Source of the DNA: Candidatus Woesearchaeota archaeon
GTDB taxonomy: Archaea > Nanobdellota > Nanobdellia > Pacearchaeales > GW2011-AR1
Assembly: GCA_964413095.1 (NCBI GenBank)
Contig: CAYPRJ010000001.1
Coordinates: 6,975 to 70,974 of the forward strand
Length of the DNA stretch: 64,000 nucleotides
Direction: 5' to 3'
The notes beneath the pieces were generated by a model. The model did no database searches. It saw only the letters and a list, made by a program, of their open reading frames with translations, and was not told the DNA's origin. The translations under genes and the position numbers were made by a program. Below are positions 14,171 through 63,173 of the stretch, piece after piece; position 1 is the first letter of the stretch, and every line of letters begins with the position of its first letter.

Positions 14171-14443
14171 TTATCCAAAAGCTCTTCTCATATCAACAAC
14201 TTCAATAGAATTAATATTTTTGATTTCTTTTAATTTTTCTTCAATTGGTTCTATAGGAGTTTCTTCATCAATATCAAAAGAAGTTATAACTGCTTTTAAT
14301 CCGAATGCTATTGGCTCTTCTTCAAATGAGGTTCTTTTTCCGTTGTTTTTTTCAATTATCTCTTTTGCAGATTTTTTAATATCTTCTAAATCCACTTCTG
14401 GAGAAGACGGCATAATTTTTATTTTAACTAATACTATTCCCAT
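14171..14443 (-). CDS. ef1b: translation elongation factor aEF-1 beta
   Basis: 90 aa. MGIVLVKIKIMPSSPEVDLEDIKK...EEEPIAFGLKAV...IEVVDMRRA matches archaeal EF-1beta. Confidence 0.8.
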   Translation of the reverse strand: MGIVLVKIKIMPSSPEVDLEDIKKSAKEIIEKNNGKRTSFEEEPIAFGLKAVITSFDIDEETPIEPIEEKLKEIKNINSIEVVDMRRAFG

Positions 14444-14488
14444 AATTTTAGTGTAATTTAATGTGTTTATAAGTTTTCTGATGTTTAT

Positions 14489-14652
14489 AGTATCTCTGAT
14501 ACTTATAAATGGTATTCTTATTTTTCAATAACTTGGCTCACTTCATTCGCTATTAATAAATATAATTAATGCTAAAACCAACGAGGATTGCAGTTATTTG
14601 TGGATTAATTTGAGCTGATAGGCGAACTATTTTTCATTCAAAAAAACTCATC
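14489..14652. repeat. ~165-bp element, copy A of an inverted repeat pair (partner at 60348-60510, about 95% identical)
   Basis: Direct comparison: the reverse complement of 60348-60510 aligns to 14489-14652 with about 5 mismatches or indels. Confidence 0.85.
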
Positions 14653-14707
14653 GGAGACTAGTTTAGTTTATAATAATACTTAAAAAGATTTAATCTTTTT
14701 TTATTAG

Positions 14708-15655
14708 ATGGCTGATGGAAATTATGAGAGAATTTTGAATAGAATTTCTAAGTCTTCAGGATTAGATAAGGAAGAAGTAGAGAGAAGAGTTGAAGCTAAA
14801 AGAGCAAAACTTTCTGGTCTTATTAGCCACGAAGGAGCTGCGCAGATTATTGCTGCTGAGCTGGGAGTTAATTTTGATAATGAAAGATTGAAGATTAATG
14901 AATTATTACCTGGGATGAAAAAAGTCAATGTTGTTGGAAAAGTTATTAATTTATTTCCTGTAAGAACTTTTGTTAGAAATGGTAAGGAAGGAAAAGTAGC
15001 AAATCTTATTATTGCTGATGAAACTTCAAATATGAAACTTGTTTTATGGGATGTTAATCATATTGAGTTGATTGAAAAAGGAAAAATTGACAAAGGAAGT
15101 GTGATTGAAGCTATTAATGGGGGTGTTAGAGATAATGAAATACATCTGGGTAGTTTTTCTGAATTGAAATTAAGTGATAAGAATTTAGAAGATAAAGATA
15201 TTAAAAAAGAAAAAGTTTACAAAGAAAGAAAAATATTTGATTTCAAAATTTCAAGCAATATCAAAGCAAGAGCTTTTATTGTTCAGGTCTTTGAGCCTAG
15301 ATTTTTTACTGTTTGTCCTGAATGCAAAAGAAAGGTTGTATCAGAAGGAGAAAACTTTGTTTGTTCTGAGCATGGGAAAGTTACTGGAGAAAAAAGAGCA
15401 GTTATGAATGTTATTCTTGATGATGGCAGTGAAACAATTCGTTCAGTTATTTTTCATGATAAATTAAAAGATTTAGGAATTACAGATTTAGAAAATCAAG
15501 AGACATTATCAAAACAAAAACAAGAACTTTTAGGCAAAGAAATGTTTTTTTTCGGAGCTGTTAGGAACAATAATTATTTTAATAATTTGGAATTTATAAT
15601 AGACAAAGCAGAGGAAGTAAATCTTGACGAATTGTTGCAAGAGCTAGAGGGTTAA
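14708..15655 (+). CDS. rpa: replication protein A (RPA/SSB) with OB fold and C-terminal zinc ribbon
   Basis: The N-terminus LISHEGAAQIIAAELGV is typical of archaeal RPA. OB-fold region, and CPECKRKV...CSEHGKV is a Zn ribbon. Confidence 0.6.
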   Translation: MADGNYERILNRISKSSGLDKEEVERRVEAKRAKLSGLISHEGAAQIIAAELGVNFDNERLKINELLPGMKKVNVVGKVINLFPVRTFVRNGKEGKVANLIIADETSNMKLVLWDVNHIELIEKGKIDKGSVIEAINGGVRDNEIHLGSFSELKLSDKNLEDKDIKKEKVYKERKIFDFKISSNIKARAFIVQVFEPRFFTVCPECKRKVVSEGENFVCSEHGKVTGEKRAVMNVILDDGSETIRSVIFHDKLKDLGITDLENQETLSKQKQELLGKEMFFFGAVRNNNYFNNLEFIIDKAEEVNLDELLQELEG

Positions 15656-16158: not shown

Positions 16159-19100
16159 ATGGCTACTAAAAAAGATGTTGAAGAAATTAAGAATGCTGTT
16201 TCTGGAGAGGAGAAGGAGGAAAAAGAGCCTCAGCTTACAGATTTGCCGGGAATTGGTCCTGCAGTAGCAACAAAGCTTGAATCTGCAGGAATATATGATT
16301 TAATGTCTTTAGCTGTTATGGGTCCTGCTGAGTTAGGGAATATTGCTGGTGTTAGTGCTGGTGTTGCAAGAAAAGCTATTCAAGCAGCGCGTAGTATGTT
16401 GAAACTAGGTTTTACAGATGGCTTTGAATATGCACAGAGAAGAGCTAATGTTAATTATATTACTACTGGAAGTAAAAATATTGATAATCTTCTTGGGGGA
16501 AAAGGTGTAGAAAGCAGAGCAGTTACAGAAGCATTTGGAGCTTATGGTTCTGGAAAGTGTGTAAGTAAAGACACTGCGGTTAGTTATTTTAATGATACAA
16601 GGATGCATGTTGAGCAGATACAGGAAACTTACAATAAATACAACAAAAATAATGAGTTTAAGTTTGAGGAAGGATTTGCTGTCCCTGTTTCAAGCGTAAA
16701 GGTTCTTGCTTGGAATAAGGGAAAATTAAAAGTTGCAAGAGCTTCACATTTATATAAGGAAAAAGTAAAGCAGTTATTCTTAGTAAAAACAAAAAGAGGC
16801 AGGGTTTTAAAAGTTACAGGAAAACACAGGATTTTAAGTTTTGATAATGGGGTTAAATGGAAAAAAACATCGGATTTAAAAAAAGGAGACTTAATTGCTT
16901 CTCCAAGAAAATTAGATTTGGTTACAGAAAATATTTATGATGAAGATGATGCTTATTTTTTGGGGTTGTTTGTAGCAGAAGGAACTTCAAATCCTTTTTC
17001 AATTTCAACTGGCTCTGAAAAAATAAAGAATTGGGTTTGCAATTACATAAAAAATAAATTTAGATATGTTCCTCTGGTGAGATATAATCAAAGAGGTGAA
17101 AAACCAGTTTATACAATTTTATCAAAAAATAAAACCCGCGGAATAATGGCTGGACTTGATAAATGCAACTCCTCTAATAAGTTTATTCCTGAAGCTATTT
17201 TTCTTTCAGATGAAAATGTTGTTTCTTCATTTTTAGGAGGATATCTTGATGGAGATGGAGAGGTTTCTAAAACAGATGTCTCTGCGACTACAAAAAGCTC
17301 TAAACTGGCTACACAATTAAGTTATTTGTTTTTAAGATTGGGAATTAGCGTAAGTATTAAAGAAAGAAAAAATGAAAAATATGGAAACTATAAGGTAGTT
17401 AGGGTAAGTGGTGAAGATAGAAAAAGGCTAAAAAATGTTTCTTTTAAGATAAAAAGATTTTCTCCTGATATAAGAAATAGTGCTTATGGCTATCCTCGAA
17501 AAATAATTTCTTTTCTTCACCAACTTTATAAAGAGTGTCTTGGAGGTAATAGGGGAAGATTAAGAAAAGAAGTAGGCAAAAGAAGTTTGGACAGAACTGT
17601 TTATTCTAATTTAATAAACCAATATCAGGGAAAGGTGGTAAATACAAAAACATTTAGAAGAATAGAAGATGTTTTTGAAAAACAGAAAGACAGATTTGTT
17701 CATATTTTAAAGAAACTCGAAGATGAAGAATTTAGCCAGGAAATTTTAAATGAAATCTATCCTAGTTTGCCTTTTGCTTTTAGTTCATTGGCAGAAGATA
17801 TGGGCCTGAAGAAAAAAAGCATAAGAAATTATTATCATAGAAATATTCCTAATTCAAAAAAAGAGATTTTAAAGAATCTTATTTTTAATGAATTAAAAAC
17901 CAGGGTTGATATGATTTACCTGGCTTTGGAAATTATTTCAGAAATAAAGATGTTTAATTGGGATGTTGTGGAGAGTGTTGAAGTTATTGATTATGATGAT
18001 TATGTTTATGACTTTGTTGTTCCAGAGGGGCATTCTTTTATTGGGGGCAATCTTCCTACAATGATGCATAATACTCAGCTTGGTTTAACTCTTGCTGTTA
18101 ATGTTCAATTGCCTGTTGAAAAAGGTGGTGCAAATGGAAAGTGTGTTTTTATTGATACAGAAGGAACTTTCAGACCAGCGCGTATAAAACAAATTGCTGA
18201 AATTTTAGGAGCCAATCAAGAAAAAGTTTTGAAAAATATTTTAGTTGCAAGAGCTTTTAATTCAGATCATCAAATTTTGCTTTTAGAAAAAATCTCTGAA
18301 ATGGTTAAACAAGGAGAACCAATTAAATTATTAATTGTTGATTCTTTAACTGCACATTTTAGAGCAGAGTTTTCAGGAAGAGGACAATTAGCAGACAGGC
18401 AGCAAAAATTGAATAAATATCTTCATAATTTAATGAGGCTTGCTGAACAGCACAATCTTGCAGTTTATGTTACAAATCAAGTAATGGCAAATCCTGCGCA
18501 GATGTTTGGAGATCCTACAACTGCAATTGGGGGGAATATTGTGGGACACGCTTGTTTAACAGGAGATAGTTTAATTCAATTAGCTGATGGAAGTATAAGG
18601 GAAATTAAAAATATTAGTAAGAATAATGTTATTTCTGGAAATTTAAATAAATTAAGCTTTGAACAAGCAGGCTCTGAAAAAACTTTTATCAATCCAGACA
18701 TCAAAAAAATTTACAATATTAAAACAACAAATCAAATAAAGTGTTCTCCTCTCCATAGATTTTTTTCAATAGAAAATTTTTCTATTATTGAAAAAGAAGC
18801 CAAAGATTTGAGAGAGGGGGATTTTATTGCTCATGCAGGAAGAATTGAGATAGGGGGAGAAGAGCAGGAGTTGCCGACTCTAAATTTAAGAAGAATTGGA
18901 AAAATATCTAAAGATGAGGGAAAATTAATTTCAGAGGAGCTTGGAAAAGGAAATATTTCAAGAAATGAAATATGCAAGAAAGTGGGGATAACTTCAAGGC
19001 AGTTTAGAAGGGTTTTAAATCAGTCATATCCTACAAATATTAAAGTTTTTGATGCTTTAAAAAAGCATTTTGCAAATAATCTTCAGTTACAGGTTGTTCC

Positions 19101-20166
19101 TTTTTATACTTATAAACATCAGAATATTATGATTCCTGAAACTTTAAATCCTCGGTTAGCACAAATTTGTGGCTATTTTATTGGTGATGGAAATTTTGAG
19201 GCAAGAGGTTTAAGATTTAGAGATGAAAGGGAGGGGGTTTTACAATTTTACAATAAACTCTTTTCAGAAACATTTAGGATTCAGGGAAAGATTTCTAAAA
19301 TGAAAAATAAAAATTGTTTTACTTTAAATATTAATTCAAAAGAAATTGCTGATTTTTTTAGACTTATTCTTCCGGATATTTTTGATTATGTTGCTAAATC
19401 CAAGAAAGATGTGGTAGCAGGTTTTATCAAGGGCTTTATTGATGCAGAAGGGCATGTCAATAAAAAAAGACCAAAAATAACAATTGCTCAAAAAGAAAAA
19501 CTAATTTTAAGATATTTGCAATTATTTTTGCTGAGATTTGGAATCAGAAGTTTTTTGAGATTTGATGGTGGTAAGAAAAAAATTTCAAATCTTTCAATAA
19601 GAGATCGGAGCGTTAAGGATTATTTGCAGATTGGTTTTAGTGCTGAAAGTAAACAGAAGCAATTATTAAAATGGATAAAGCATGTTAATAAGACATATCA
19701 AAAAGAAATGATGCCTATTCAAAGAAACGAGATTTTAGAACTTCTTAAAAGTGTTGGGTTAAAACCCTCTTTAATCATTAAGTCTAGACCCTCTTCTTAT
19801 AAATGGATAAATGGGGAGGAGTTAAAAAAAGCACATAATGCTCTCATGAATAGTAGAGTAAATGATAGACAAATAAAACAGAAAATTGAATTTATATTTA
19901 AACTATTAAATTCAGATATAAGATTTGAAAAAATTAGAAAGATATCAGTTTCTGAAAATAAAGGAAAAGAATTATTTTATGATTTTTCTGTTCCTAAAAA
20001 GGAGAATTATATGGCTAATGGTTTTATTGTTCATAACTCCACATACAGAATGTATTTAAGAAGAGGAAAAAAAGATTCACGAGTTGCAAAGTTAATTGAC
20101 TCTCCGAATTTGCCAGATAATGAAACAGTTTTTTATCTTACAGAGTCTGGTGTTAGAGATGAATAA
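16159..20166 (+). CDS. radA: DNA repair and recombination protein RadA containing two inteins
   Basis: The N-terminal HhH domain, Walker A GAYGSGK|..|TQLGLTLAV, Walker B LLIVDSL and C-terminal GGNIVGHA|..|STYRMYLRRGKK...LIDSPNLPD are contiguous RadA sequence once two intein blocks are removed. Confidence 0.9.
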   Translation: MATKKDVEEIKNAVSGEEKEEKEPQLTDLPGIGPAVATKLESAGIYDLMSLAVMGPAELGNIAGVSAGVARKAIQAARSMLKLGFTDGFEYAQRRANVNYITTGSKNIDNLLGGKGVESRAVTEAFGAYGSGKCVSKDTAVSYFNDTRMHVEQIQETYNKYNKNNEFKFEEGFAVPVSSVKVLAWNKGKLKVARASHLYKEKVKQLFLVKTKRGRVLKVTGKHRILSFDNGVKWKKTSDLKKGDLIASPRKLDLVTENIYDEDDAYFLGLFVAEGTSNPFSISTGSEKIKNWVCNYIKNKFRYVPLVRYNQRGEKPVYTILSKNKTRGIMAGLDKCNSSNKFIPEAIFLSDENVVSSFLGGYLDGDGEVSKTDVSATTKSSKLATQLSYLFLRLGISVSIKERKNEKYGNYKVVRVSGEDRKRLKNVSFKIKRFSPDIRNSAYGYPRKIISFLHQLYKECLGGNRGRLRKEVGKRSLDRTVYSNLINQYQGKVVNTKTFRRIEDVFEKQKDRFVHILKKLEDEEFSQEILNEIYPSLPFAFSSLAEDMGLKKKSIRNYYHRNIPNSKKEILKNLIFNELKTRVDMIYLALEIISEIKMFNWDVVESVEVIDYDDYVYDFVVPEGHSFIGGNLPTMMHNTQLGLTLAVNVQLPVEKGGANGKCVFIDTEGTFRPARIKQIAEILGANQEKVLKNILVARAFNSDHQILLLEKISEMVKQGEPIKLLIVDSLTAHFRAEFSGRGQLADRQQKLNKYLHNLMRLAEQHNLAVYVTNQVMANPAQMFGDPTTAIGGNIVGHACLTGDSLIQLADGSIREIKNISKNNVISGNLNKLSFEQAGSEKTFINPDIKKIYNIKTTNQIKCSPLHRFFSIENFSIIEKEAKDLREGDFIAHAGRIEIGGEEQELPTLNLRRIGKISKDEGKLISEELGKGNISRNEICKKVGITSRQFRRVLNQSYPTNIKVFDALKKHFANNLQLQVVPFYTYKHQNIMIPETLNPRLAQICGYFIGDGNFEARGLRFRDEREGVLQFYNKLFSETFRIQGKISKMKNKNCFTLNINSKEIADFFRLILPDIFDYVAKSKKDVVAGFIKGFIDAEGHVNKKRPKITIAQKEKLILRYLQLFLLRFGIRSFLRFDGGKKKISNLSIRDRSVKDYLQIGFSAESKQKQLLKWIKHVNKTYQKEMMPIQRNEILELLKSVGLKPSLIIKSRPSSYKWINGEELKKAHNALMNSRVNDRQIKQKIEFIFKLLNSDIRFEKIRKISVSENKGKELFYDFSVPKKENYMANGFIVHNSTYRMYLRRGKKDSRVAKLIDSPNLPDNETVFYLTESGVRDE
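16558..18072 (+). mobile_element. RadA intein 1 (505 aa) inserted in the P-loop, with LAGLIDADG homing endonuclease domain
   Basis: Starts with Cys right after GSGK, ends ...MMHN before TQL. LAGLIDADG blocks are LGLFVAEGTS and LGGYLDGDGEV. Confidence 0.85.
18553..20037 (+). mobile_element. RadA intein 2 (495 aa) with LAGLIDADG domain
   Basis: Starts CLTGDSLIQLADG, ends GFIVHN|S. LAGLIDADG blocks are ICGYFIGDGNFE and VAGFIKGFIDAEGHV. Confidence 0.85.
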
Positions 20167-22366: not shown

Positions 22367-24700
22367 ATGGATAATTTAACAAATAAAGATGTAATCTTTT
22401 CTGACTTTCATATACATTCACGATTTTCTAGAGCTTGTAGCAAAAATATTACTTTTGAGAATTTAACTAAGTGGGCGAAAATTAAAGGGCTTAACTTATT
22501 AGGTACTGGAGATTTTACTCATCCAATTTGGTTTAAAGAGATTAAGGATAAATTAATTGATAATGGAAATGGTTTTTACCTTGATTCTGCAACAGGTTTT
22601 CCGTTTATTATTACAGGAGAAATTTCTTTGATGTATTCTCAAGGAGGAAAAGGAAGAAGAGTTCATCTTGTATTGCTTGTTCCTTCAATTGAAATTGCTG
22701 AGAAGATAAATTCTTATTTTGATAAAAGAGGAAGAAGAGATTATGATGGCAGGCCTATTTTTAAAATTTCATGTGAAGATTTTGTTAAAGATATGATGGC
22801 TATCTCTGAAAGCATTGAAATAATCCCTGCTCACATTTGGACTCCCTGGTTTGGTATTTTCGGAAGCCAAACAGGATTTGATAGTTTAAAAGAAGCTTTT
22901 GGAGAACAAGTTGAAAATATTCATGCAATTGAAACCGGGATCTCATGTTATGATTCTAAAACAGAGATTTTAACAGAGAAAGGTTGGAAATTTTTTAAAG
23001 ATGTAAATAAATCTGATAATATTTGTACACTTGATCCAGAAAATTATAATATTGAATTTCAAAAGCCTCTTAATATTTTTAAAAGAAAATATAAAGGTAA
23101 AATGTATAAATTAGAAACTAAGAGAGTAAATCTTTTAGTTACCCCTAATCATAAGCTGTTTTATAGCCACTGTGATTTTAGAAAGAAACCAAATTTTTCT
23201 CTGAAAAAGGCAGAGTTATTATTCAATAAATCAAAAAGGTTTAAGAAGGATGGGAACTGGAGAGGGAAAAATCAAAAATATTTTGTTTTACCAAAAGTGA
23301 GAATTAAGCATGGAAGCAAATATTACTCAGGTGAGAGAAACAAAGAGATTAAGAAATTTCCAATTAAAGAGTGGTTGAGATTTTTTGGTTTTTGGATTGC
23401 CGAAGGATGTACACATCAGGGAAAGAATGGAGATTATGGGGTTTATATTTTTAATGATAAAAAAGATGTTCTTTTGGAAATGAAAAAGATTTTAGAGGGT
23501 TTTGGATACAGACCTTATCTTGATAAAAATATTCTTAGAGTAAGAGATTTTCAATTATTTAAATATCTAGATCAGTTTGGAAAATCTGGAGATAAATATA
23601 TCCCTTTAGAGATTAAATCTCTTTCTAAGGAATTGCTTCAACTTTTTTTTGATTATTATATTAAGGGAGATGGCCATAGATATGGAAGAAATAACAAAGG
23701 TCTTTCTGCAACAACTATCTCTAAAAAATTAAGAGATGATTTACAAGAAGTAGCTTTAAAATTAGGAATGTCTGCATATTATAAATTACATAATAAAAAA
23801 GGAACATCCATAAACTCTCTTCCAGTAGCAAAATCAAAAGGTTATAAACAATCTAAAGATTCTTGGAATGTTTATTTTATTAAAGAAAATCTTCATACAG
23901 TTATTCCCTCTACTATTAAAAAATGGAATTATAAAGAGAAATGGATTCAGTATAATGATTATGTTTATTGTGTTCAAGTTCCAAATCATGTGATTTATAT
24001 TAGAAGAAACGGCATTCCTGTTTGGTGTGGTAATTCAGACCCTGAAATGAATTGGAAAATTAAAGAGCTGACAGAGAATAATATTTCAATTGTTAGTTTT
24101 TCAGATGCTCACTCTCACTGGCCATTTAGATTAGGAAGAGAAACAACTATTTTCAAAAAAACAAATTCATATAAAGAAATTATAAGACAAATTAGAGAAA
24201 ATGATTTTATTGGAACAATTGAAACAGAGCCTGCCTATGGAAAATACCATTGGGATGGACACAGAAATTGTAATTTTTCTTGTTCTCCGAATGAAGCAAA
24301 AGAGCTTAATTATATTTGCCCTATTTGTGGAAATCCTTTGACAAGAGGAGTAGAAAACAGAGTTGAATTCTTAGCAGGAAATCCAGAGAATTTTAAACCA
24401 AAAAGTGCAAAATTTTTTTACAAACTTCTTCCTTTACATGAGCTAATTGTTTTAGTTTATGGAGGAAGTTTACAAAGCAAAAAAAACTGGGAAATTTATG
24501 ATTCTTTGATAAAAGAATTTGGAAATGAGTTCAATGTTTTGCTGAATGTTTCTAAAGAAAAATTATTAAGAATTAATTTAAATGATAAATTAGTTGAGAT
24601 GATTTTGAAAAACAGAGAGGGTAAGATTAAAGTCAAGCCAGGTTATGATGGTGTTTATGGAGAGGCATTGTTAGAAGAGAAACAATCAAAATTATTTTAA
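22367..24700 (+). CDS. endonuclease Q (EndoQ, PHP-fold) containing one intein
   Basis: The N-terminus DFHIHSRFSRACSKNITFENLTKWAKIKGLNLLGTGDFTHP matches the EndoQ PHP domain. C-terminal Zn finger CPICGNP. Intein blocks in between. Confidence 0.6.
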   Translation: MDNLTNKDVIFSDFHIHSRFSRACSKNITFENLTKWAKIKGLNLLGTGDFTHPIWFKEIKDKLIDNGNGFYLDSATGFPFIITGEISLMYSQGGKGRRVHLVLLVPSIEIAEKINSYFDKRGRRDYDGRPIFKISCEDFVKDMMAISESIEIIPAHIWTPWFGIFGSQTGFDSLKEAFGEQVENIHAIETGISCYDSKTEILTEKGWKFFKDVNKSDNICTLDPENYNIEFQKPLNIFKRKYKGKMYKLETKRVNLLVTPNHKLFYSHCDFRKKPNFSLKKAELLFNKSKRFKKDGNWRGKNQKYFVLPKVRIKHGSKYYSGERNKEIKKFPIKEWLRFFGFWIAEGCTHQGKNGDYGVYIFNDKKDVLLEMKKILEGFGYRPYLDKNILRVRDFQLFKYLDQFGKSGDKYIPLEIKSLSKELLQLFFDYYIKGDGHRYGRNNKGLSATTISKKLRDDLQEVALKLGMSAYYKLHNKKGTSINSLPVAKSKGYKQSKDSWNVYFIKENLHTVIPSTIKKWNYKEKWIQYNDYVYCVQVPNHVIYIRRNGIPVWCGNSDPEMNWKIKELTENNISIVSFSDAHSHWPFRLGRETTIFKKTNSYKEIIRQIRENDFIGTIETEPAYGKYHWDGHRNCNFSCSPNEAKELNYICPICGNPLTRGVENRVEFLAGNPENFKPKSAKFFYKLLPLHELIVLVYGGSLQSKKNWEIYDSLIKEFGNEFNVLLNVSKEKLLRINLNDKLVEMILKNREGKIKVKPGYDGVYGEALLEEKQSKLF
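22946..24034 (+). mobile_element. EndoQ intein (~363 aa) with LAGLIDADG domain; C-terminal boundary uncertain by 3 residues
   Basis: Starts CYDSKTEILTEKGWKF (block A), LAGLIDADG block FFGFWIAEGC, block F/G YVYCVQVPNHVIYIRRNGIPVWCGN|S. The terminal motif is atypical, GN rather than HN. Confidence 0.6.
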
Positions 24701-31882: not shown

Positions 31883-34800
31883 TTATAGCCGAAATTTCCC
31901 TCCTTTCATAAACTTCTTAGCCATTTTCATAAGTTGCTTTTGTGACATGGCTTTTTCTGGGTTCATACCAGACATGCCTTCTTTAATCATTTCATTAAGC
32001 ATTTTGTATTGTTTTAATAAAGAACGAACATCACTTCCATGAACTCCTGCTCCTTTTGCTATTCTGGCAATGCGGGAAGTTTCTTTTTCCAAGAGCTCTG
32101 GATTTTCTTTTTCTTCTGGTGTCATTGATTTAACTATATGCTCCCATTTTGAAATTTTAGCTTCTTGATTTTCTAAGAGATTTTCAGGAACCTTTTTTTC
32201 TATGTTCGCAAAACCAGGAACCATGTTTTTTATTTTATCTAAACCTCCCATAGAGCCCATTGATTTAACTTGTTCTATAACATCTTCAATAGAAAGTTTT
32301 CCTTCCTGAAGCCGCTTTTGCATAGCTTCTTGTTTTTTTCCTCCTGTTGCTGATTTTATTTTTTCAATCAAGGACTGCAAATCACCCATACCAAGAAGTC
32401 TTGAGAGAAAATTTTCTGGATTAAATTCTTCTATGTCATTTGCTTTTTCTCCTGTTCCTATAAAATAAACAGGAGCCTTCACTTCATTACAAGCTGTTAA
32501 AGCTCCTCCTGCCTTGGCAGTTGAGTCCATTCTCGTTATTATAACTCCAGAGATATTTACTGCTTCTTTAAATTGAGAAGCTTGTTGGTGTGCTGCCTGC
32601 CCAATATCTGCAGGCATAACTAGGATGTTTTCAGTTGGTTTTATTGTTTTTTCTAGTTGTTTTATCTCTTTAATTAGCTCTTTGTCTAAAGTGTGTCTAC
32701 CTGCTGTATCAATAAGAATTAAATCATAATCTTTCAGTTCTCTTTCAAACTTTTTCCAGATTTTTATTGGATTTTTTTCTTTGGCATCTATGAAGCAATT
32801 TAAATTATATTTTTCTGCAAGTTGTTTTAATTGTTCTGGAGCTGCTGGTCTATGTGTGTCCAATCCTACAAGAGCAACTTTGTGCCCTCTTTTAGCGTAA
32901 TAATTTCCAATTTTTGCAATTGTTGTTGTATTGTGCACAACTATTCCATCAGCCAAAAAACTGTGATTATCTTCCACTGTTAAATCATAAACAAATTTTT
33001 CATCATTTTTAATATGATTAATCTCTTTTACTGGAGTCCAACAAATATTAGAAGATGAAAGAAGTTCAAAAGATTTTAACAGAGGCTCTAATTTACTTTT
33101 ATGTATAATTTGTAAATATTGCATTCCTCTTTCAGTTAGAGAATTTTTAATTCCTTTTTCTACAAATCCTTCTTGTTTCAAATGTTTTAAAATACCATTA
33201 ACTGCCCTATATGAATATTTATTTGATATGGATATATTATTTGAGATATCATTTAAGATACCCAAAAAAACTCCTTCTTTTTTCATTCTGTAATATAATA
33301 GGAGTTTTTTCAATTGTTCTTTTGAGATCAATCCTTTTTTTTCATATATTCCATAGCTATAAACCGCATTTTCTTGTATTTCTCCTATTGAGAAACCAAG
33401 AGCAAACCTTAATGCTTTTAATGAATTTCCTAAAGGAATCATGTCTTGATTCCCTGCTCCTTGTATCTTTCCAATCTGATTATACTTTTCTGTTATTTTT
33501 TGTTTGTAATTTATCAAATATCCTATTTTTTCAGAATAAATCTCAGCATATTTTCCTTTAATATATAATGTCCAATAAGAAATATTATTAATAATCTTTT
33601 TAGATATAGATGATAATATTCCAAGTCTTCTAAGGAGTAAGGACATTTGTTGTAGATTTATGTAGCTTTCTGATGATACTTCTATATACCTCTTATTTTT
33701 GCTTGGTGAAGAATCACAATCAAAATAAGCTTTTATGAATGACCTAATTACTTCATTATTTGAAAGCATTATCTGCTTTGGGATTTCAAGATTTCTTCCT
33801 TTCTTTCCTACGTTAAATCCAAATTTCTGTAATATTTTAACTAAAGTAACTGAATTTAATCTAATGTAGTAAAGATTTTTACTTCTCTTATCTTTTGTTA
33901 AAGTAGGAGTTAAATTAAAAATAATTTTGGATAGCTCAATAATTCTATTTATTATTTCAATATCCTCGTTTGATATATGTATACTTCTTTCGCTAATATA
34001 ACCATCACCTATGACATATCCTATAAATTCTGACAATTCTTGAGTTAGATGAAGGGGAAAAGATATTATTTTACTACTCTTTACATGTTTTAATCTTAAG
34101 AAATTATATTTTTCTTTTTCTATAAATTCTATTGGTATTCTTCCTTTGTTAATAATTGAGGTAAGGTAACTATAATTTTTTTTATATTTTAAATTACTGT
34201 ATCCCTCCTTTATTGAATTGTATTTTTTTAAGATATTTTGTTTAGCTTCTTTGGGGGTTAAATAAGCTTCTAAATTGAGATTTTTTATATAATCGAATAA
34301 ATTTATTGTTTTCCCTTCTATTTCTATTTTATTGGGAATAGATATGAAATCCTCTTTTGTTAACTCATCAGCCCTTATTTGAGTGATTTGTCCATTTTTT
34401 AGGACAAAAAAGGGATGCTCTGGTGTTACTTTAATTGAAGAGTCATTTCCATTACCAATTTTGACTTCAATCAATTCATCTTTTTTTAATTTCCATAAAT
34501 AAGTCGCTTTTTTATTCTCAATTTTTAAAGTTTTAGGATTAAATGATGGGATCTGTAATCTTTTATCTTGTATGTTGATTATTTTTCCATCCTCTATATT
34601 TTCTTCTAAATCTTTATATCTTTCATATAATTTTTTTGCTTTGATTATCTCTCCATTTCCCAGCTGGATTTTACTTTCTGAATGAACACATTTTCCTGCT
34701 CCATATAAACCAAGGAGTATAATTCTGTTTTGTTCTTTGCTTTGTAAAGCTAATTGTTTATGCTCTCCAAGAATTTCAACTAACTCATCATGTAATAGTT

Positions 34801-35023
34801 TTATTATATGTTCTTTTTTGTCTATTTCTTTTATTTTTTCATCTAATGCAGTTTTTTTTATTTTATCACTTAAATCCTTAACTAAAGACACATTTACATC
34901 TGCTTCAATCATAGCTCTTTGCAAATCTCTGACAACAGAATCAACAAGATTTTTATCTAAGAATATAGCATTAGCTATTTTGTTTGTTGCTTTTCTTAAC
35001 ACTTCTCCTAATTTTTCTAGCAT
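31883..35023 (-). CDS. srp54: signal recognition particle protein SRP54 containing one intein
   Basis: N domain, G domain with GLYGAGK|..|TTTIAKIG, DTAGRH, and an M domain with a Met-rich C-terminus. 1046 aa because of the intein. Confidence 0.9.
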   Translation of the reverse strand: MLEKLGEVLRKATNKIANAIFLDKNLVDSVVRDLQRAMIEADVNVSLVKDLSDKIKKTALDEKIKEIDKKEHIIKLLHDELVEILGEHKQLALQSKEQNRIILLGLYGAGKCVHSESKIQLGNGEIIKAKKLYERYKDLEENIEDGKIINIQDKRLQIPSFNPKTLKIENKKATYLWKLKKDELIEVKIGNGNDSSIKVTPEHPFFVLKNGQITQIRADELTKEDFISIPNKIEIEGKTINLFDYIKNLNLEAYLTPKEAKQNILKKYNSIKEGYSNLKYKKNYSYLTSIINKGRIPIEFIEKEKYNFLRLKHVKSSKIISFPLHLTQELSEFIGYVIGDGYISERSIHISNEDIEIINRIIELSKIIFNLTPTLTKDKRSKNLYYIRLNSVTLVKILQKFGFNVGKKGRNLEIPKQIMLSNNEVIRSFIKAYFDCDSSPSKNKRYIEVSSESYINLQQMSLLLRRLGILSSISKKIINNISYWTLYIKGKYAEIYSEKIGYLINYKQKITEKYNQIGKIQGAGNQDMIPLGNSLKALRFALGFSIGEIQENAVYSYGIYEKKGLISKEQLKKLLLYYRMKKEGVFLGILNDISNNISISNKYSYRAVNGILKHLKQEGFVEKGIKNSLTERGMQYLQIIHKSKLEPLLKSFELLSSSNICWTPVKEINHIKNDEKFVYDLTVEDNHSFLADGIVVHNTTTIAKIGNYYAKRGHKVALVGLDTHRPAAPEQLKQLAEKYNLNCFIDAKEKNPIKIWKKFERELKDYDLILIDTAGRHTLDKELIKEIKQLEKTIKPTENILVMPADIGQAAHQQASQFKEAVNISGVIITRMDSTAKAGGALTACNEVKAPVYFIGTGEKANDIEEFNPENFLSRLLGMGDLQSLIEKIKSATGGKKQEAMQKRLQEGKLSIEDVIEQVKSMGSMGGLDKIKNMVPGFANIEKKVPENLLENQEAKISKWEHIVKSMTPEEKENPELLEKETSRIARIAKGAGVHGSDVRSLLKQYKMLNEMIKEGMSGMNPEKAMSQKQLMKMAKKFMKGGKFRL
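32930..34690 (-). mobile_element. SRP54 intein (587 aa) in the P-loop, with LAGLIDADG domain
   Basis: Begins CVHSESKIQLGNGE after GAGK and ends DGIVVHN|TTT. LAGLIDADG blocks are FIGYVIGDGYIS and the surrounding DOD blocks. Confidence 0.85.
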
Positions 35024-35392: not shown

Positions 35393-35443
35393 TTTTTAAT
35401 TATAATCCAAGTCTCTTAATAAATTTTTCCTTGTCAAATAAAA

Positions 35444-35575: not shown

Positions 35576-35584
35576 AAAATTCAT

Positions 35585-36685
35585 TTATAATCCAAGTCTC
35601 TTAACAAATTTCTTTTTATCAAAAGGTTCAATTTTGTCATAAGCCTGTCCTGTGCCGAGGTAGAGAATTGGTTTTTTTGTTATATAGCCAACACTTAATG
35701 CAGTTCCGCCTTTTTCGTCTATGTCTGCTTTTGTTAAAACTATTCCATCTATTCCTATTGCCCAGTCAAAACTTTTTGCTTGTTCAATTGCATCGTTTCC
35801 TGTAATGCTTTCTCCTACAAAAATTTTCAAATCTGGTTTTGCAACTTTTGATATTTTTTCAATTTCTTTAATTAAATTTTTTGCAGTATGCATTCTTCCA
35901 GCAGTGTCTATTAACACACAATCAATGAAATTCTTTTTTGCATATTTTATTGCATCAAAAGCAACTGAAGCAGGATCACTTCCATATTCATTTGCTATTA
36001 CTTTTGTTCCTGTTTTTTCTCCATGCTCTTTTATTTGTTCTATAGAAGCAGCTCTGAATGTATCTGAAGCAGCAATCACACAAGAAACATCTTTCCCTTT
36101 TAACTGCTCTGCAACTTTTGCAATTGTTGTTGTTTTTCCTGAACCATTAATGCCACAAAATAAAATAACATAAGGCTCTTTACTTTGGTCAGAAAGTTTC
36201 TCTTTAATTTTTTCAGATAAATCAAAAGGCTCTATGAGAATTTCATTAATTATTTCTTTAAATGCATCTTTGATTTCTTCTTCTACTTCTTTTTTTAAAA
36301 GTTCTTTTCCAACAATTTTTTCTTTGAGTTGTTTGATAATTTTTTTAGAAACATCTAAAGCAACATTATTTTCTAAAAGGAGCATTTCAAGTTCTTCAGC
36401 ATAAATATTGAATTTTTCTTCAGAAATTTTAATTTTTGAAACTCTTGAAGTTATTTTTTTGAAAAAACCTTTTTCTCCAGGTTTTGGCTCCTCTTTTTCA
36501 ATTTCACTTTCTATTTCTGAAATTTTTTCTAAGTCAGGTTCATATTTATGTCCAGCAACATCGTACTTTTTTGGTATTTCTATTTCTTTCTCAGTTTTTT
36601 CTTTGTTTTTTTTAGAAACTTTTTTTGTCCAGTTTTGTATTTTCTCTTTTAATTTTCCAAACATATTTTTATGAATGTACTGCAA
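35585..36685 (-). CDS. ftsY: signal recognition particle receptor FtsY
   Basis: ILFCGINGSGKTTTIAKVA, DTAGR and the C-terminal G domain. 366 aa. Confidence 0.9.
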   Translation of the reverse strand: MQYIHKNMFGKLKEKIQNWTKKVSKKNKEKTEKEIEIPKKYDVAGHKYEPDLEKISEIESEIEKEEPKPGEKGFFKKITSRVSKIKISEEKFNIYAEELEMLLLENNVALDVSKKIIKQLKEKIVGKELLKKEVEEEIKDAFKEIINEILIEPFDLSEKIKEKLSDQSKEPYVILFCGINGSGKTTTIAKVAEQLKGKDVSCVIAASDTFRAASIEQIKEHGEKTGTKVIANEYGSDPASVAFDAIKYAKKNFIDCVLIDTAGRMHTAKNLIKEIEKISKVAKPDLKIFVGESITGNDAIEQAKSFDWAIGIDGIVLTKADIDEKGGTALSVGYITKKPILYLGTGQAYDKIEPFDKKKFVKRLGL

Positions 36686-40584: not shown

Positions 40585-40720
40585 AGCCTGTGGAGGGATT
40601 CTAACCCCCGGCCTACTGCTGGCTTTCTGAACATGTAGTTGGCTCAGATACAAGGCAGTTGAGCATATCTTAACCTTTTAGAGTCACAGATATTCCGCTC
40701 TAACACTGAGCTACACAGGC
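40585..40720 (-). tRNA. tRNA-Thr(TGT) with two introns (~36 nt after the D-arm, ~28 nt at 37/38)
   Basis: Reverse complement: acceptor GCCTGTG/CACAGGC, D-arm GCTC..GAGC, anticodon stem ACTGC/GCAGT with loop CTTGTA|intron|A, T-arm GGGGG-TTAGAAT-CCCTC. Confidence 0.6.
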
Positions 40721-41334
40721 TTAATATTAGACAGAGTTATATTCTTTAAAAAGTTTTGTCCCTTCAATCTTAATGGAAGTTTATTATCAAATCTTATATA
40801 ATAAAAAGGAATTTTATTTGTATAATTTATTTTTATTTTGGAACAATTTAGATTAAGTTCGTCGCATAATTTACTTACCCCTTTTATTAAATTAAATCTT
40901 TTCTGTTTAAGCTGAATTCTTTTATTATACACAGAACCATCTGTATCAACTAATCCTGCTAGATAATTTAGTGCACAAGTTTTATTTGTTTTAACTATCT
41001 TTGGGATTTTCCCAAATTTCTTCTTTCCAATTTCACTTTCTAATTTTACAAAATAAAAAAATAACCCTGCGTTTTCTATCTTTAAATAATATGAATTTTG
41101 TTTTCTATTATCTTTGTTAATCTTTCCATTAACTGAAAAAAGTTTGTTTAACACGTTTCTAATGTAATCAATATAGATTTCACTCCCTGAATAAACTCTG
41201 AGAAGATAATGATAACCTCCTTTTTTTCTTTTCGTTATACTTAAAGAACCATCACCTTCTATAACTCCTAAAAGATATGCAATATCTTTATTTATTGTGG
41301 GTATGTTTATTTCACTCCTTCTTGTTTTTATCAT
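40711..41334 (-). CDS. free-standing LAGLIDADG homing endonuclease-like protein
   Basis: Two LAGLIDADG motifs, YLLGVIEGDGSL and YLAGLVDTDGSV. 207 aa. The stop codon lies inside the 5' acceptor stem of tRNA-Thr. Confidence 0.8.
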   Translation of the reverse strand: MIKTRRSEINIPTINKDIAYLLGVIEGDGSLSITKRKKGGYHYLLRVYSGSEIYIDYIRNVLNKLFSVNGKINKDNRKQNSYYLKIENAGLFFYFVKLESEIGKKKFGKIPKIVKTNKTCALNYLAGLVDTDGSVYNKRIQLKQKRFNLIKGVSKLCDELNLNCSKIKINYTNKIPFYYIRFDNKLPLRLKGQNFLKNITLSNIKPV

Positions 41335-42610: not shown

Positions 42611-42719
42611 TGGTCCTGCGCGGAATTGAACCGCGGTTTTATCCATTTTGTGAACAGCTTACAGATTTAAGTGAACTGAACTCGTCAAGGACATGTCTTA
42701 GCCACTGGACTACAGGACC
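42611..42719 (-). tRNA. tRNA-Val(GAC) with ~37-nt anticodon-loop intron
   Basis: Reverse complement: acceptor GGTCCTG/CAGGACC, D-arm GTC-AGTGGCTAA-GAC, anticodon stem TGTCC/GGATA with loop TTGACG, T-arm CGCGG-TTCAATT-CCGCG. Confidence 0.6.
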
Positions 42720-51533: not shown

Positions 51534-51720
51534 TAGTTAAATTACGCGGGAGAAAGGATTCGAATGAAAACTTCTGACTCTGAAATCACACTTCCAGCAA
51601 CCTGAATCCTATTTATGCGGGAGAAAGGATTCAAATTCAAAACCTCGCGGTTTTGTATCCAGATGCAACTTCCTCTTTTTGCCTTTGAAGGAAGTTATCA
51701 TATAGTTCGAATCCTATTTA

Positions 51721-51858
51721 TGCGGGAGAAAGGATTCGAACCTTCGCAGGCACTAAGCCAACAGGTTTCTTCGAGTTAGTTTGCGTTATTTGTGAGACAT
51801 AATCTCTCGCAATCTTCTCGCCTAAGCCTGTCCCGTTTGACCACTCCGGCACTCCCGC
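51721..51858 (-). tRNA. tRNA-Leu(TAG), class II with long variable arm, 54-nt intron at 37/38
   Basis: Reverse complement: acceptor GCGGGAG/CTCCCGC, anticodon stem ACAGG/CCTGT with loop CTTAGG|intron|A, variable arm TGGCTTAGTGCCTGC, T-arm GAAGG-TTCGAAT-CCTTT. Confidence 0.7.
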
Positions 51859-52012
51859 ATTCAAGAGGAGTGGGAAAACTCGTTTGACCCGAAAGTTCTC
51901 GTGAACTTCCTGTAGCCCTTAATTTGAGCGAGGGCTTGAGTTCTCCGGCACTCCCGCATAGAATTAAAGAGAATTTTGAATATAAAAAGCTTTTTAGAAT
52001 TAATGGTTGAGA

Positions 52013-55738: not shown

Positions 55739-55913
55739 TTTTTTGAATTGGTTAATAGAAAGATTTTAAATATTCTATTTTTCTTTGATTAATAGTGAGC
55801 CCCTGTAGCTCACGTAAGAAACCAAGGTTCCTTGACGTTCAACCTCCTTTGTGGCACTGTTGGGTGATTTCAAGTTGCCTTCGGTGAAATCGCGGACGCT
55901 ACAGGAGACAAGC

Positions 55914-56037
55914 CCCTGTAGCTCAGCCTGGATAGAGCGACTGCCTTCTATGCTATTGGCAGTGTCGTACATTGTTGCGATTATTTGTCTTCAGCGGATA
56001 GCAGTAGGCCGCAGGTTCGAATCCTGTCGGGGGCATT
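55914..56037 (+). tRNA. tRNA-Arg(TCT) with 49-nt intron at 37/38
   Basis: Acceptor GCCCCTG/CGGGGGC, D-arm GCTC-AGCCTGGATA-GAGC, anticodon stem ACTGC/GCAGT with loop CTTCTA|intron|A, T-arm GCAGG-TTCGAAT-CCTGT. Confidence 0.65.
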
Positions 56038-56128
56038 TAGGATTCGATAAATTAGTTTAAACGCATTCAAATAGGAAGGTTAAGCGAAGGAAACTTCGTG
56101 TCCTCGCTTCGAATCCTGTCAGGGGCAT

Positions 56129-56986
56129 TTGAAAAAAATGAAAAGCAAAAAAGAGGTGGAATTAAAATTTCCCTTAAGTAAAAAAGAAAAATATGTAGCA
56201 ATGCTTGCTCCTAGTTTTGTTGTTGATTTCTCTTATCCTAAAATAATTCATCAACTTAGGGAATTAGGTTTTGATAAAATTGTTGAATTGACTTTTGGAG
56301 CAAAAATGATTAATAGAGATTATCATAAAAAATTGAAAAAATCTAAAGAATTAGTTATTGCAAGTGTTTGTCCTGGTGTTGTTGAAACAATAAAAAATAA
56401 ATTTCCAAGGTATAAAAAAAATCTTATTAAAGTTGACAGTCCCATGATTGCTACAGCAAAGATTTGTAAAAAAATTTATCCAAATTATAAGATAGTCTTT
56501 ATTTCTCCTTGTGATTATAAAAAAACAGAAGCACAGAAAACAAATTATATTGATTATGTTGTTGACTATGGAAGATTGAAAAAATTACTCAAAAAAATTA
56601 AGATTAAAAAGAAGGGAAAAATTTTGTTTGATAAATTTTATAATGATTACACTAAAATTTATCCTGTTGCAGGAGGGCTCTCAAAAACAGCGAATCTTAA
56701 AGGATCTTTAAAAGAAAATGAGGTTATGATTATTGATGGAATTAATGATGTTATTAAATTTCTTAAAAAACCAAAAAAAGGAATAAGGTTTCTTGATGCT
56801 ACTTTTTGCAAGGGAAGTTGTGTTGGAGGTCCTTGTATAAATTCTAAATTACCTATTAAATTGAGAAAAAAGAAGATTTTGAATTATTTAAAAAAAGCAA
56901 AACAAGAGGATATTCCTGATACTAGAAAAGGAATTATTAAGAGAGCTAAAGGAATTTCTTTTTCTTCTAATTTCCCAAGCAAATAA
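56129..56986 (+). CDS. minimal [FeFe]-hydrogenase H-cluster domain-like protein (HydA/Narf-like, 285 aa)
   Basis: LAPSFVV..LRELGFDKIVELTFGAKM, L1-like IASVCPGVV (TSCCP with the first Cys replaced by Val), L2 ISPCDYKKTEAQ (MPCxxKxxE) and L3 FCKGSCVGGP (CxxGCxxGG). Confidence 0.6.
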   Translation: MKKMKSKKEVELKFPLSKKEKYVAMLAPSFVVDFSYPKIIHQLRELGFDKIVELTFGAKMINRDYHKKLKKSKELVIASVCPGVVETIKNKFPRYKKNLIKVDSPMIATAKICKKIYPNYKIVFISPCDYKKTEAQKTNYIDYVVDYGRLKKLLKKIKIKKKGKILFDKFYNDYTKIYPVAGGLSKTANLKGSLKENEVMIIDGINDVIKFLKKPKKGIRFLDATFCKGSCVGGPCINSKLPIKLRKKKILNYLKKAKQEDIPDTRKGIIKRAKGISFSSNFPSK

Positions 56987-59736: not shown

Positions 59737-60114
59737 TTAATTATATTTTTTATTTATGAGAGTATGAATTCCTATTGCAGAAAATATTCCTAATGAATCA
59801 ATAAATATGTCAGTTATACTTGCATCTCTTAAAGGGACAAACATTTGGTGAAATTCATCGAATATTGCATGTATTATGGAAATTGTTAATACTAGAATAA
59901 TTGTTTTTAGAGTAATATCTTTTTTACCTTTTATTAAGATAAATAAGAAGAAAGTAAATAGAAAAAAAGCAGTTAAATGATATGTCCTTGGGATCCAGGG
60001 GTTTCCCCCTATTCCAGTTGAAGATGCTCCAGTAATACTTGAAAAAAGGAATATTTCCAGTGTAATGAGGACTGTTATTATTAATGCAAATAATCTATTT
60101 TTGAAAAGTTCCAT
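59737..60114 (-). CDS. VanZ-like membrane protein
   Basis: 125 aa, 4 TM helices. The family call is weak. Confidence 0.3.
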   Translation of the reverse strand: MELFKNRLFALIITVLITLEIFLFSSITGASSTGIGGNPWIPRTYHLTAFFLFTFFLFILIKGKKDITLKTIILVLTISIIHAIFDEFHQMFVPLRDASITDIFIDSLGIFSAIGIHTLINKKYN

Positions 60115-60153
60115 TTTTGGAGATTGGTTTTTTTGTTTAAAAGAATTACTATG

Positions 60154-60225
60154 ATGTCTCTGGAGGGAGTTTAACCCTCGACTTCTGCCTCATGAGAGCA
60201 GCGCTCTGACGCTGAGCTACAGAGA
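60154..60225 (-). tRNA. tRNA-Met(CAT) (elongator or Ile2-type), intronless
   Basis: Reverse complement: acceptor GTCTCTG/CAGAGAC, D-arm GCTC-AGCGTCA-GAGC, anticodon arm CTGCT-CTCATGA-GGCAG, T-arm GAGGG-TTAAACT-CCCTC. Confidence 0.8.
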
Positions 60226-60347
60226 CAAGATTACTAGAGAAAATTGATTTAAAAGTTTTAGTATTAAAGGCTTTGATAAAACATAAGAATTTCTTAACTT
60301 CCTGCTCATTACTCGCAGGTTTTTTTAGATTTAATAGAACTATCTCA

Positions 60348-60510
60348 GATGAGTTTTTTTGAATGAAAAATAGTTCGCCTATCAGCTCAAATTAATCACA
60401 AATAACTGCAATCCTCGTTGGTTTTAGCATTAATTATATTATCAATAGCGAATGAAGTGAGCCAAATTATTGAAAAATACGAATACCATTTATAAGTATC
60501 AGAGATACTC
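60348..60510. repeat. ~165-bp element, copy B (inverted relative to 14489-14652)
   Basis: See copy A. It lies immediately 5' of tRNA-Met on the minus strand. Confidence 0.85.
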
Positions 60511-61177
60511 ATAGAAGACGAAATTTTAATGAATAAACTAAATAGATTTTAGATTTAATTTTAATAAAGATAGTTAAAAATTTTACATTCTTTAGATTTA
60601 ATAAAGAAACGACTATGTTCAATTTACAATTTAATCTACAACACAATTTTAATTTATAACACAAAAAGAAGTGATAAAAATAAAAAAATAAACAGGAATT
60701 CACCAAAGCTGTATTAAAGAAAAAAGGGAAAAATAAAGAGGATTATTGAAAAAATTATTTTCTATATTTTTTCTTTGTATTCTCTTTCATCCTGTTGCTC
60801 TGCTTGTATCTTGTATGTTGCTTCTTGAGAAGGTTGATTTGATTCTATTATAAGGCAGCCTTCAGGATTTTCAGCCCATATGGCTCTTTTTTCCCACATT
60901 AGTTTCTCTTCTATTGTTCTTAGATTTTCTTCATTACTCATTCTTACCTCCGATATTTAATTTTGCTCTGTAAACCAGGACCAGATTCAAAGTATATAAT
61001 AAATTTATAAGAATCAAAAGCCCAGTAAAATTAATACAGAGCTTTAATCACAGATATACTTTTTGTTTTATTCTTAAAGTACAGCTGTGAATTATTCATT
61101 CTTTTTTTAATATTATAAAGTTTATATATTTTTCCGTAAAAAATAAAAAAAGAAGAAATAGTAATAATTAATTTTAA

Positions 61178-61504
61178 CTAACTATTGTTTTTAACTAAAG
61201 TTATCTCAATTGTAGATACACTAACTTTTTTTCCTTCTTTGTTTTCAAATTCTTCACTGCCTGTTTTTATTTCCTTTATTTCAACTTCTTGGTCTTTTAG
61301 AAATCTCTTTTTGACAACTTCTGCAATGTCAACAGCTCTGCTTATGAATTTTCCTCTTGCTTTTACAATCACTTCGTTTTTTCCCTTGGTTGTGAACTGC
61401 ATAACAACACTTGTCACATAATTCATAAAAGGTTTAGTTCCAACATAAACAACATTTTCATCTTCGGCAGATTTGTTGGGTTTGTTTTCAAGTTCTTCAG
61501 TCAT
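61178..61504 (-). CDS. albA: DNA/RNA-binding protein Alba
   Basis: [21 protein letters not shown]...[24 protein letters not shown]...STIEITL. Confidence 0.85.
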
Positions 61505-61532
61505 TTTTGTTACCTTAGTTTATTTAGTTTAA

Positions 61533-61712
61533 TTAATGTTTTTGTTTTTTTAATTTTGTTATTAATCCTGCTATTTGATTTCTTATTTTTTTGCTAGGTG
61601 CTGTATTTTTAAGAATTTTTTTGTTTTCTTCAAAATTGTTAGTGAAAGGTATATCTTTTTCTAAGAGAGTTTTTGCAGCTTTTTTTATTGATTTTGATTT
61701 TATTTTACCCAT
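61533..61712 (-). CDS. rps17e: 30S ribosomal protein eS17 (S17e)
   Basis: Translates to MGKIKSKSIKKAAKTLLEKDIPFTNNFEENKKILKNTAPSKKIRNQIAGLITKLKKQKH. This 59-aa protein is below the ORF-table cutoff. Confidence 0.7.
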   Translation of the reverse strand: MGKIKSKSIKKAAKTLLEKDIPFTNNFEENKKILKNTAPSKKIRNQIAGLITKLKKQKH

Positions 61713-62654: not shown

Positions 62655-63173
62655 TTATGGCCTTATCCATCCCACTTCATAATATGTGACATCTCCTTCT
62701 TCATCAACAATTGCTAGAAGTAAGTTCTTTTTTGTAGAGTGTGCTATTCTTGTTTTTGCTGAAAATTCGTGCCAGGTTAATTTTCCAGATTCATGGTCTG
62801 TGAATACAAGCCATTTTGCATGTTTTTTTCCTGGGCGTGCTCCTTTTTCATAAACTCTAAATTCTGCACCAAATTTCAATGCTGTTTTTACTATATAACC
62901 TCTTTCTCTTAAATCTTTAAACACAGGATATTTTATTTGAATTTTCTTATCTATTCTTCTTAACTTTGATATTAGGTCCTTTTTTGAAATTTTTTTGGTT
63001 TTTGAAAATGCTTCTGCTTTTCCTTTTTCAACTAAGAATAAAACTTCTGATGGGGAGTATTGGATTTTTTCTCCTACAGGCTCACCAAAACAACTTTTTT
63101 TATATAGAGAAAATGCTTCTGCATCATTGCTTGAGATTATTTCTCCTATGATATATATTTTAATTTTTTCCAT
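62655..63173 (-). CDS. endA: tRNA-splicing endonuclease EndA
   Basis: The catalytic C-terminal domain ALKFGAEFRVYEKG...HAKWLVF with the conserved Tyr, His and Lys. 172 aa. Confidence 0.8.
   Translation of the reverse strand: MEKIKIYIIGEIISSNDAEAFSLYKKSCFGEPVGEKIQYSPSEVLFLVEKGKAEAFSKTKKISKKDLISKLRRIDKKIQIKYPVFKDLRERGYIVKTALKFGAEFRVYEKGARPGKKHAKWLVFTDHESGKLTWHEFSAKTRIAHSTKKNLLLAIVDEEGDVTYYEVGWIRP

Follow-up and report, generated by a model that had tools for sequence, protein, structure and literature searches.

MITEs are about 50–800 bp long and usually end in terminal inverted repeats of at least 10–15 bp. The SM-type MITEs of Sulfolobus and other archaeal IS-derived miniature elements are reportedly non-autonomous and about 100–350 bp in length; they are said to be mobilised in trans, to be flanked by direct repeats, and to carry clear terminal inverted repeats in common with identifiable IS families of the same genome. 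Bacteria harbor intergenic repeats of comparable length, such as those of the Neisseria Correia, ERIC, and RUP types, which are about 100–170 bp long and whose copies number in the tens to hundreds. They can contain signals resembling promoters and terminators, and co-transcription is frequent among them. Their terminal inverted repeats are long (26 bp in Correia, with a TA duplication). MITEs are already known from archaea and reach a high density in some DPANN genomes (PMC11602168).

The window analysed here, a 64-kb stretch of archaeal DNA, contains two near-identical copies of a short repeat in inverse orientation. The homologues of its RPA and GlyRS genes are annotated as Pacearchaeota, Woesearchaeota, or Nanoarchaeota, and the best non-self matches are merely 70–72% identical, which indicates a poorly sampled DPANN lineage. 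We regard it as reasonably probable that the repeat is a lineage-specific, non-coding, non-autonomous, MITE-like mobile element of ~172 bp, with two or more insertions into AT-rich intergenic DNA of a Pacearchaeota-type archaeon.

Extent and composition of the repeat

An inverted pair of ~165 bp at ~95% identity had been claimed in the original prediction and is recovered here: copies A (14489–14657, + strand) and B (60509–60343, − strand) align over 169 columns at 96.45% identity (blastn; E = 1.5e-75), and all of the mismatches quoted at the time (cttat/cgtat, aacttgg/aatttgg, and ttaataaatat/ttgataatat) are found in the alignment. The copies diverge by ~3.6%, comprising 4 substitutions and 2 single-base indels, and their flanks become abruptly dissimilar on both sides (MAFFT). 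The arms of the inverted repeat are contiguous over three segments (14489–14559 with 60439–60509, 14559–14602 with 60397–60440, and 14603–14657 with 60343–60397), the only breaks being the two 1-nt indels. No third copy or fragment was detected in the 64-kb window (blastn with word size 7; nhmmer). With limits set by testing identical boundary offsets in both copies, the element and its parts are as follows.

14488–14660, + strand: copy A, 173 bp, non-coding, between the divergent ef1b and RPA promoters
60340–60510, − strand: copy B, 171 bp, in the spacer 5' of the tRNA-Met promoter, interrupting the third unit of an array of ATTAAATCTAAA copies
14489–14503, + strand: 5'-terminal palindrome AGTATC-TCT-GATACT, which includes the left arm TATCTCTGAT of a weak terminal inverted repeat
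60495–60509: counterpart of the 5'-terminal palindrome in copy B
14650–14660, + strand: 3' end of copy A, ATCGGAGACTA, which serves as right arm of the weak terminal inverted repeat
60350–60341, − strand: right arm of copy B, ATCTGAGATA, also a weak terminal-inverted-repeat arm

14501–14510, + strand: internal TATA-like box ACTTATAAAT that lacks an A-rich BRE and makes a mediocre promoter candidate whichever strand is read
14630–14634, + strand: T5 run, which from its sequence alone could be an archaeal termination signal for a hypothetical ~100-nt transcript
A few bases downstream of 14630–14634: T7 run on the minus strand, corresponding to the A7 tract in AAAAAAACTC

The 6-bp palindrome to which attention had been drawn earlier is thus present at the 5' end of both copies. 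The GC content of the element is 29.5%, compared to 13–18% for the enclosing spacers and 29% for the window overall, so that the element is compositionally foreign to its immediate surroundings. It contains no ORF of at least 25 aa; a single 26-aa ORF overlaps its left edge.

Insertion sites, element ends, and gene content of the window

The genomic context given in the original prediction, with copy A in the divergent spacer between ef1b and RPA and copy B upstream of the minus-strand tRNA-Met gene, is correct, as is the observation that the two copies point the same way with respect to the downstream gene. Between the end of the element and that gene lie 47 nt for copy A and 112 nt for copy B. 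The opposite orientation of the copies, together with their matching polarity toward downstream genes, is most likely a product of chance (1 in 2). The genes and promoters concerned are these.

14171–14443, − strand: ef1b (Pfam EF1_GNE), flanking copy A
14708–15655, + strand: RPA (OB fold/DUF2240/Rep_fac-A_C), flanking copy A
60153–60227, − strand: tRNA-Met(CAT), with copy B ~112 nt upstream
14465–14473, − strand: ancestral ef1b TATA box GTTTATAAG, outside the element, conserved in relatives L096, L097–99, and L100–101
14672–14686, + strand: ancestral RPA promoter AATAATACTTAAAAA, outside the element, conserved in the same relatives (L096, L097–99, and L100–101)
60259–60247, − strand: ancestral tRNA-Met promoter AAAACTTTTAAAT, outside the element, conserved in relatives L102 and L103

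The gene block around copy A (Peptidase_A24, HIT, and ef1b on the minus strand, then RPA on the plus strand followed by YdjM and RadA) is kept in four relatives, whose RPA proteins are 66–72% identical to that of the window. The spacer between ef1b and RPA measures 264 nt in the window, as against 85 nt in L096, 80 nt in L097–99, and 105 nt in L100–101; alternatively, an NDK gene stands in its place. Site A is empty in all of these and in L106, relatives that are distant (~70% amino-acid identity). Two motifs are conserved in the spacers of L096, L097–99, and L100–101, namely GTTTATAAG, ~20 nt away from the start codon of ef1b, and AAYAATACTTAAAAA, ~25 nt away from that of RPA. Both fit the promoter pattern of the window, in which TTTAWAWA accompanies an A-rich BRE between about −38 and −24, and are the two divergent core promoters of ef1b and RPA. 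Because these promoters flank copy A, the copy is an insertion between pre-existing promoters and the source of neither. When copy A and one GTTTA are removed in silico, an 86-nt spacer results in which 20 nt separate the ef1b TATA box from the RPA promoter, exactly as in the closest relative, L096.

Only one other public contig carries an identical RPA gene (L068; Logan SRR7048220, 1988 nt). It starts at window position 14668, 7 nt past copy A, which fits an assembly break near the repeat and is uninformative on its own.

At site B, relatives L102 and L103 have S17e, then within ~40 nt a conserved AAACTTTTTAAAT-type promoter with tRNA-Met, and then VanZ. Compared to these relatives, the interval from S17e to tRNA-Met is 1.3 kb longer in the window (60114–61533), the additional DNA being made up of Alba, a 59-aa ORF without a Pfam match, an AT-rich spacer, and copy B. 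Since the tRNA-Met promoter is retained ~80 nt past the end of copy B, copy B is not its source. The AT-rich surroundings of this copy contain a short array: the 12-mer ATTAAATCTAAA is found exactly at 60324–60335, 60548–60559, and 60591–60602 on the minus strand and nowhere else in the window, and its copies lie ~43–50 nt apart once copy B is taken out. These 12-mers could be protein-binding sites. Joining the flanks of copy B with one flanking repeat gives ATTAAAATTTCGTCTTCTATTAAATCTAAAAAA, which is identical to unit 1 of the array (ATTGAACATAGTCGTTTCTTTATTAAATCTAAAGAA) at 28 of 36 positions, a short paralogous repeat serving here as the basis for the empty site. Excision of copy B thus restores an array unit, suggesting that site B, too, arose by insertion into pre-existing sequence.

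Read at the level of sequence, both copies interrupt DNA that is otherwise continuous, the divergent-promoter spacer of ef1b and RPA in the case of copy A and one array unit in the case of copy B. As both sites appear derived, a third, source copy would exist or have existed. Direct repeats resembling target-site duplications abut both copies at one and the same offset, 1 base outside AGTATC and 3 bases outside GAGA.

14483–14487: left repeat of copy A, GTTTA
14661–14665: right repeat of copy A, GTTTA
60511–60516, − strand: upstream repeat of copy B, TTCTAT
60334–60339, − strand: downstream repeat of copy B, TTCTAT

Repeats 5 bp or more in length in both members of a pair, at any one of the 28 offsets common to them, arose by chance in 0.06% of 200,000 random window draws and in 0.17% of simulations with low-GC flanks, figures to be read in light of the unequal lengths of the duplications (5 bp in A, 6 bp in B) and of limits that were drawn post hoc. 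The terminal inverted repeat spans 8 bp in copy A, with 7/8 positions paired (P = 0.28 versus random 173-mers), and 10 bp in copy B, where TATCTCTGAT pairs with ATCTGAGATA at 9/10 (P = 0.036 versus random 173-mers). The end motif TATCTCNGAT has three matches in the window, compared to 0.53 expected, and all are at element ends.

A mechanism can be proposed in which a staggered cut in the target, followed by fill-in, would generate the duplications. The mobilising enzyme would be a transposase acting in trans, encoded elsewhere in the genome or since lost, and its probable recognition site would be the near-palindromic TATCTC-N-GAT motif, found at either end of the element. No cellular function needs to be invoked for the element, which neither supplies nor disrupts the neighbouring core promoters.

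Among 50 ORFs of the window scanned with Pfam, no transposase, integrase, invertase, or recombinase was identified; what they encode is housekeeping functions, several inteins, and a LAGLIDADG endonuclease that is free-standing. A check against related genomes had been suggested in the original prediction; in 83 kb of sequence from relatives' loci, nhmmer and blastn did not detect the element. Searches for exact k-mers from the element returned, to the extent that each collection was covered, chance matches only, for the 18-mer AACCAACGAGGATTGCAG in GTDB representative genomes and viral contigs, for the 18-mer TTGAGCTGATAGGCGAAC in JGI metagenomes, and for GAGCTGATAGGCGAAC (the 16-mer core of TTGAGCTGATAGGCGAAC) and the 18-mer AGTATCTCTGATACTTAT in viral contigs. 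All but one of these matches fall in loci of >38% GC, and the similarity never extends past 17–27 nt. Comparison of the element with phages and plasmids (blastn, distant mode) gave no match.

Other kinds of insert and repeat occur elsewhere in the window. The load of homing elements is high (16159–20166, 22367–24700, 31883–35023, and 40711–41334). The RadA ORF is 1335 aa long, compared to 328–346 aa in intein-less relatives, apparently owing to two intein/LAGLIDADG inserts (from reading the translation by eye); a 777-aa protein and SRP54 each contain an intein with LAGLIDADG, and one of the intron-bearing tRNA genes has a free-standing LAGLIDADG ORF immediately upstream. The spacer between SRP54 and FtsY, unusually long at ~560 nt, contains a 44-nt direct repeat (35395–35438 and 35580–35623; 84% identity, 185-nt period).

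The tRNA genes are also unusual. Four of six have insertions in the anticodon loop (40585–40720, 42611–42719, 51721–51858, and 55912–56035), measuring 51 and 57 nt in the two that were aligned and, judging from gene length, roughly 35–65 nt in the other two. ARAGORN found only the intron-less tRNAs (n = 2), and a tRNA-splicing endonuclease gene is located at 62655–63173. Two of the intron-bearing genes are ringed by nested duplicates of their own termini (55798–56130, + strand, and 51545–51958, − strand). For the tRNA at 55912–56035, a second copy of the first 15 nt (AGCCCCTGTAGCTCA) is found 113 nt upstream, and one of the last 23 nt, 96% identical, is found 92 nt downstream; for that at 51721–51858, a duplicate of the 5' end (GCGGGAGTGCCGGAG) lies 99 nt upstream, and the 3' end (TCGAATCCTTTCTCCCGC) occurs twice more downstream. 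The trailers have TAGGATTCGA(AC), whose complement is part of the T-arm, and Rfam and ARAGORN detect the inner tRNA alone. Possible interpretations of these duplicates are additional introns of a non-canonical type, tRNA genes that are nested or split, and att-type scars. A duplication of the same kind is seen in L103 (7970–8140, − strand), where the 3' end of tRNA-Met and ~35 nt of trailer are repeated ~110 nt downstream.

Alternative readings of the pair

It is possible, if unlikely, that the repeat is a small non-coding RNA gene in two copies, residing on, or identical with, a mobile unit. Such a gene would consist of the TATA-like box at 14501–10, a ~100-nt transcript (roughly 14534–14634) closed by a GGCUCA/UGAGCU stem, and a T5 terminator, and several features are consistent with this layout: ACTTATAAAT lies ~25–30 nt upstream of a GC-richer core, T-runs within the core do not exceed 3 and the core ends at the T5 run, the 29.5% GC of the element clearly exceeds the GC content of the spacers around it, and each copy is predicted to form a terminal stem of 6 bp. 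The putative promoter, however, lacks the A-rich BRE and scores 5.7 bits (+ strand) and 6.7 bits (− strand), compared to a training-promoter median of 11.0 bits, in a position weight matrix derived from 32 upstream regions of the window, and the GC content falls well short of the 51–60% of the tRNAs in the window. Rfam searches of the whole window and, permissively, of 14300–14800 gave no match to the element at gathering or at E ≤ 10. Fold z-scores for both strands, calculated for the whole unit and the ~100-nt core, range from −0.03 to −0.46 (−0.30 and −0.46 among them) and resemble those of shuffled sequence; the minimum-energy folds differ between the copies, with a single-G indel altering the inner fold. 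Three of the six differences between copies fall inside the putative transcript, all six being spread as under neutrality, and the element is missing both at the syntenic sites and in the 83 kb of relatives' sequence. The structured ncRNA put forward in the original prediction is not borne out by these results. Readings of the element as a C/D-box or H/ACA RNA, a tRNA half, or a tiny ORF were dismissed by eye, there being no C box and the 14-aa and 12-aa ORFs being frameshifted between the copies.

The pair might also have arisen through a single duplication that involved no transposase, for instance by templated repair or by a 170-bp stretch being copied ectopically from one site to the other, in which case it would be neutral and not part of a mobile family. 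The occurrence of just two copies in the window, the weak terminal inverted repeats, and a window lacking a transposase are all in keeping with this. We nevertheless think it improbable, since both sites, rather than one alone, look derived, and since the direct repeats of 5–6 bp that abut both copies at the same offsets are not predicted by repair-type copying.

A more elaborate proposal, to which we give little credence, is that the element is a mobile small-RNA or regulatory module complete in itself, having a weak TATA box, a transcript of ~100 nt, and an oligo-T stop, and that it would spread with target-site duplications in the absence of real terminal inverted repeats; its two inverted copies might also allow the 45.7-kb interval to flip by homologous recombination. 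If true, the element would belong to a non-autonomous type so far undescribed from DPANN archaea.

The idea of a mobile promoter cassette, raised in the original prediction, fares differently in its two halves. Mobility is supported by the derived sites and the flanking duplications, whereas a role as a promoter, or as a palindromic transcription-factor site (AGTATC-N3-GATACT), for the downstream gene seems very improbable. That role would account for the identical polarity of both copies toward the next gene and for the palindrome and TATA-like box at the 5' end of the element. The core promoters of RPA, ef1b, and tRNA-Met, however, are ancestral, lie outside the element, and are conserved in relatives that lack it. 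The distances to the downstream gene are unequal (47 nt and 112 nt), the TATA-like box is ~160 nt from the 3' end of the element and faces the T5 run, and a shared polarity is expected by chance for two copies in 50% of cases.

We attach hardly any probability to the copies being the functional limits of a 45.7-kb segment that is invertible or was rearranged recently, also proposed originally, or termini of a large inserted element: inverted repeats of ~170 bp at 96% identity are long enough for homologous recombination, but both junctions retain their ancestral neighbours (ef1b and RPA; tRNA-Met by the S17e block), the order and orientation of RPA and GlyRS are the same in the relative contig Ga0366840_1000335, the interval contains housekeeping genes (among them RadA, SRP54, FtsY, TFB, GlyRS, ribosomal proteins, and tRNAs), and Pfam revealed no invertase or integrase in 50 ORFs of the window. 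The ancestral neighbours and the matching gene order imply that the assembled orientation is the ancestral one. Recombination between the copies could still take place. Terminal repeats of an integrated virus or casposon were rejected on account of the housekeeping content of the interval and the ancestral state of both junctions, and an IS200/IS605-type (PATE) element on account of the flanking duplications.

Comparison with described elements

A MITE-like repeat, which the original prediction had kept as a fallback, is the reading nearest to the evidence, although its assignment to the class is incomplete: the size, the lack of coding capacity, flanking duplications within the range of 2–10 bp, and the empty sites are those of MITEs, while the arms of the element, at 8–10 bp and imperfect, fall below the 10–15 bp of MITE terminal repeats. 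For annotation, the value of this reading lies in a small, previously unseen mobile repeat in a reduced DPANN genome. The element would explain the unusually long spacer between tightly conserved divergent promoters, is a likely cause of assembly breaks, and is a possible substrate for inversion. It would also point to recent transposition-type activity in the lineage despite there being no transposase nearby. A new mechanistic question would arise only from a demonstration of transcription or of an unusual mode of mobilisation.

No sequence similarity was found to bacterial repeats of the Correia, ERIC, and RUP types, whose long terminal inverted repeats the element lacks, and it is like them in size and intergenic placement. 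With the SM-type MITEs of Sulfolobus and other archaeal IS-derived miniature elements it shares an archaeal host, its size, and direct-repeat flanks; the difference lies in the clear link of those elements to IS families of their own genome. It differs from prokaryotic MITEs, including those of archaea and DPANN (PMC11602168), in that its terminal inverted repeats are only 8–10 bp, imperfect, and statistically marginal, in that two copies are present in the window, and in lacking a parent IS or transposase in the window or a sequence relative in the collections searched. It resembles them in being small, non-coding, and intergenic, in occurring as near-identical dispersed copies in either orientation, and, further, in its short target-site duplications and its absence at orthologous sites in relatives (PMC11602168).
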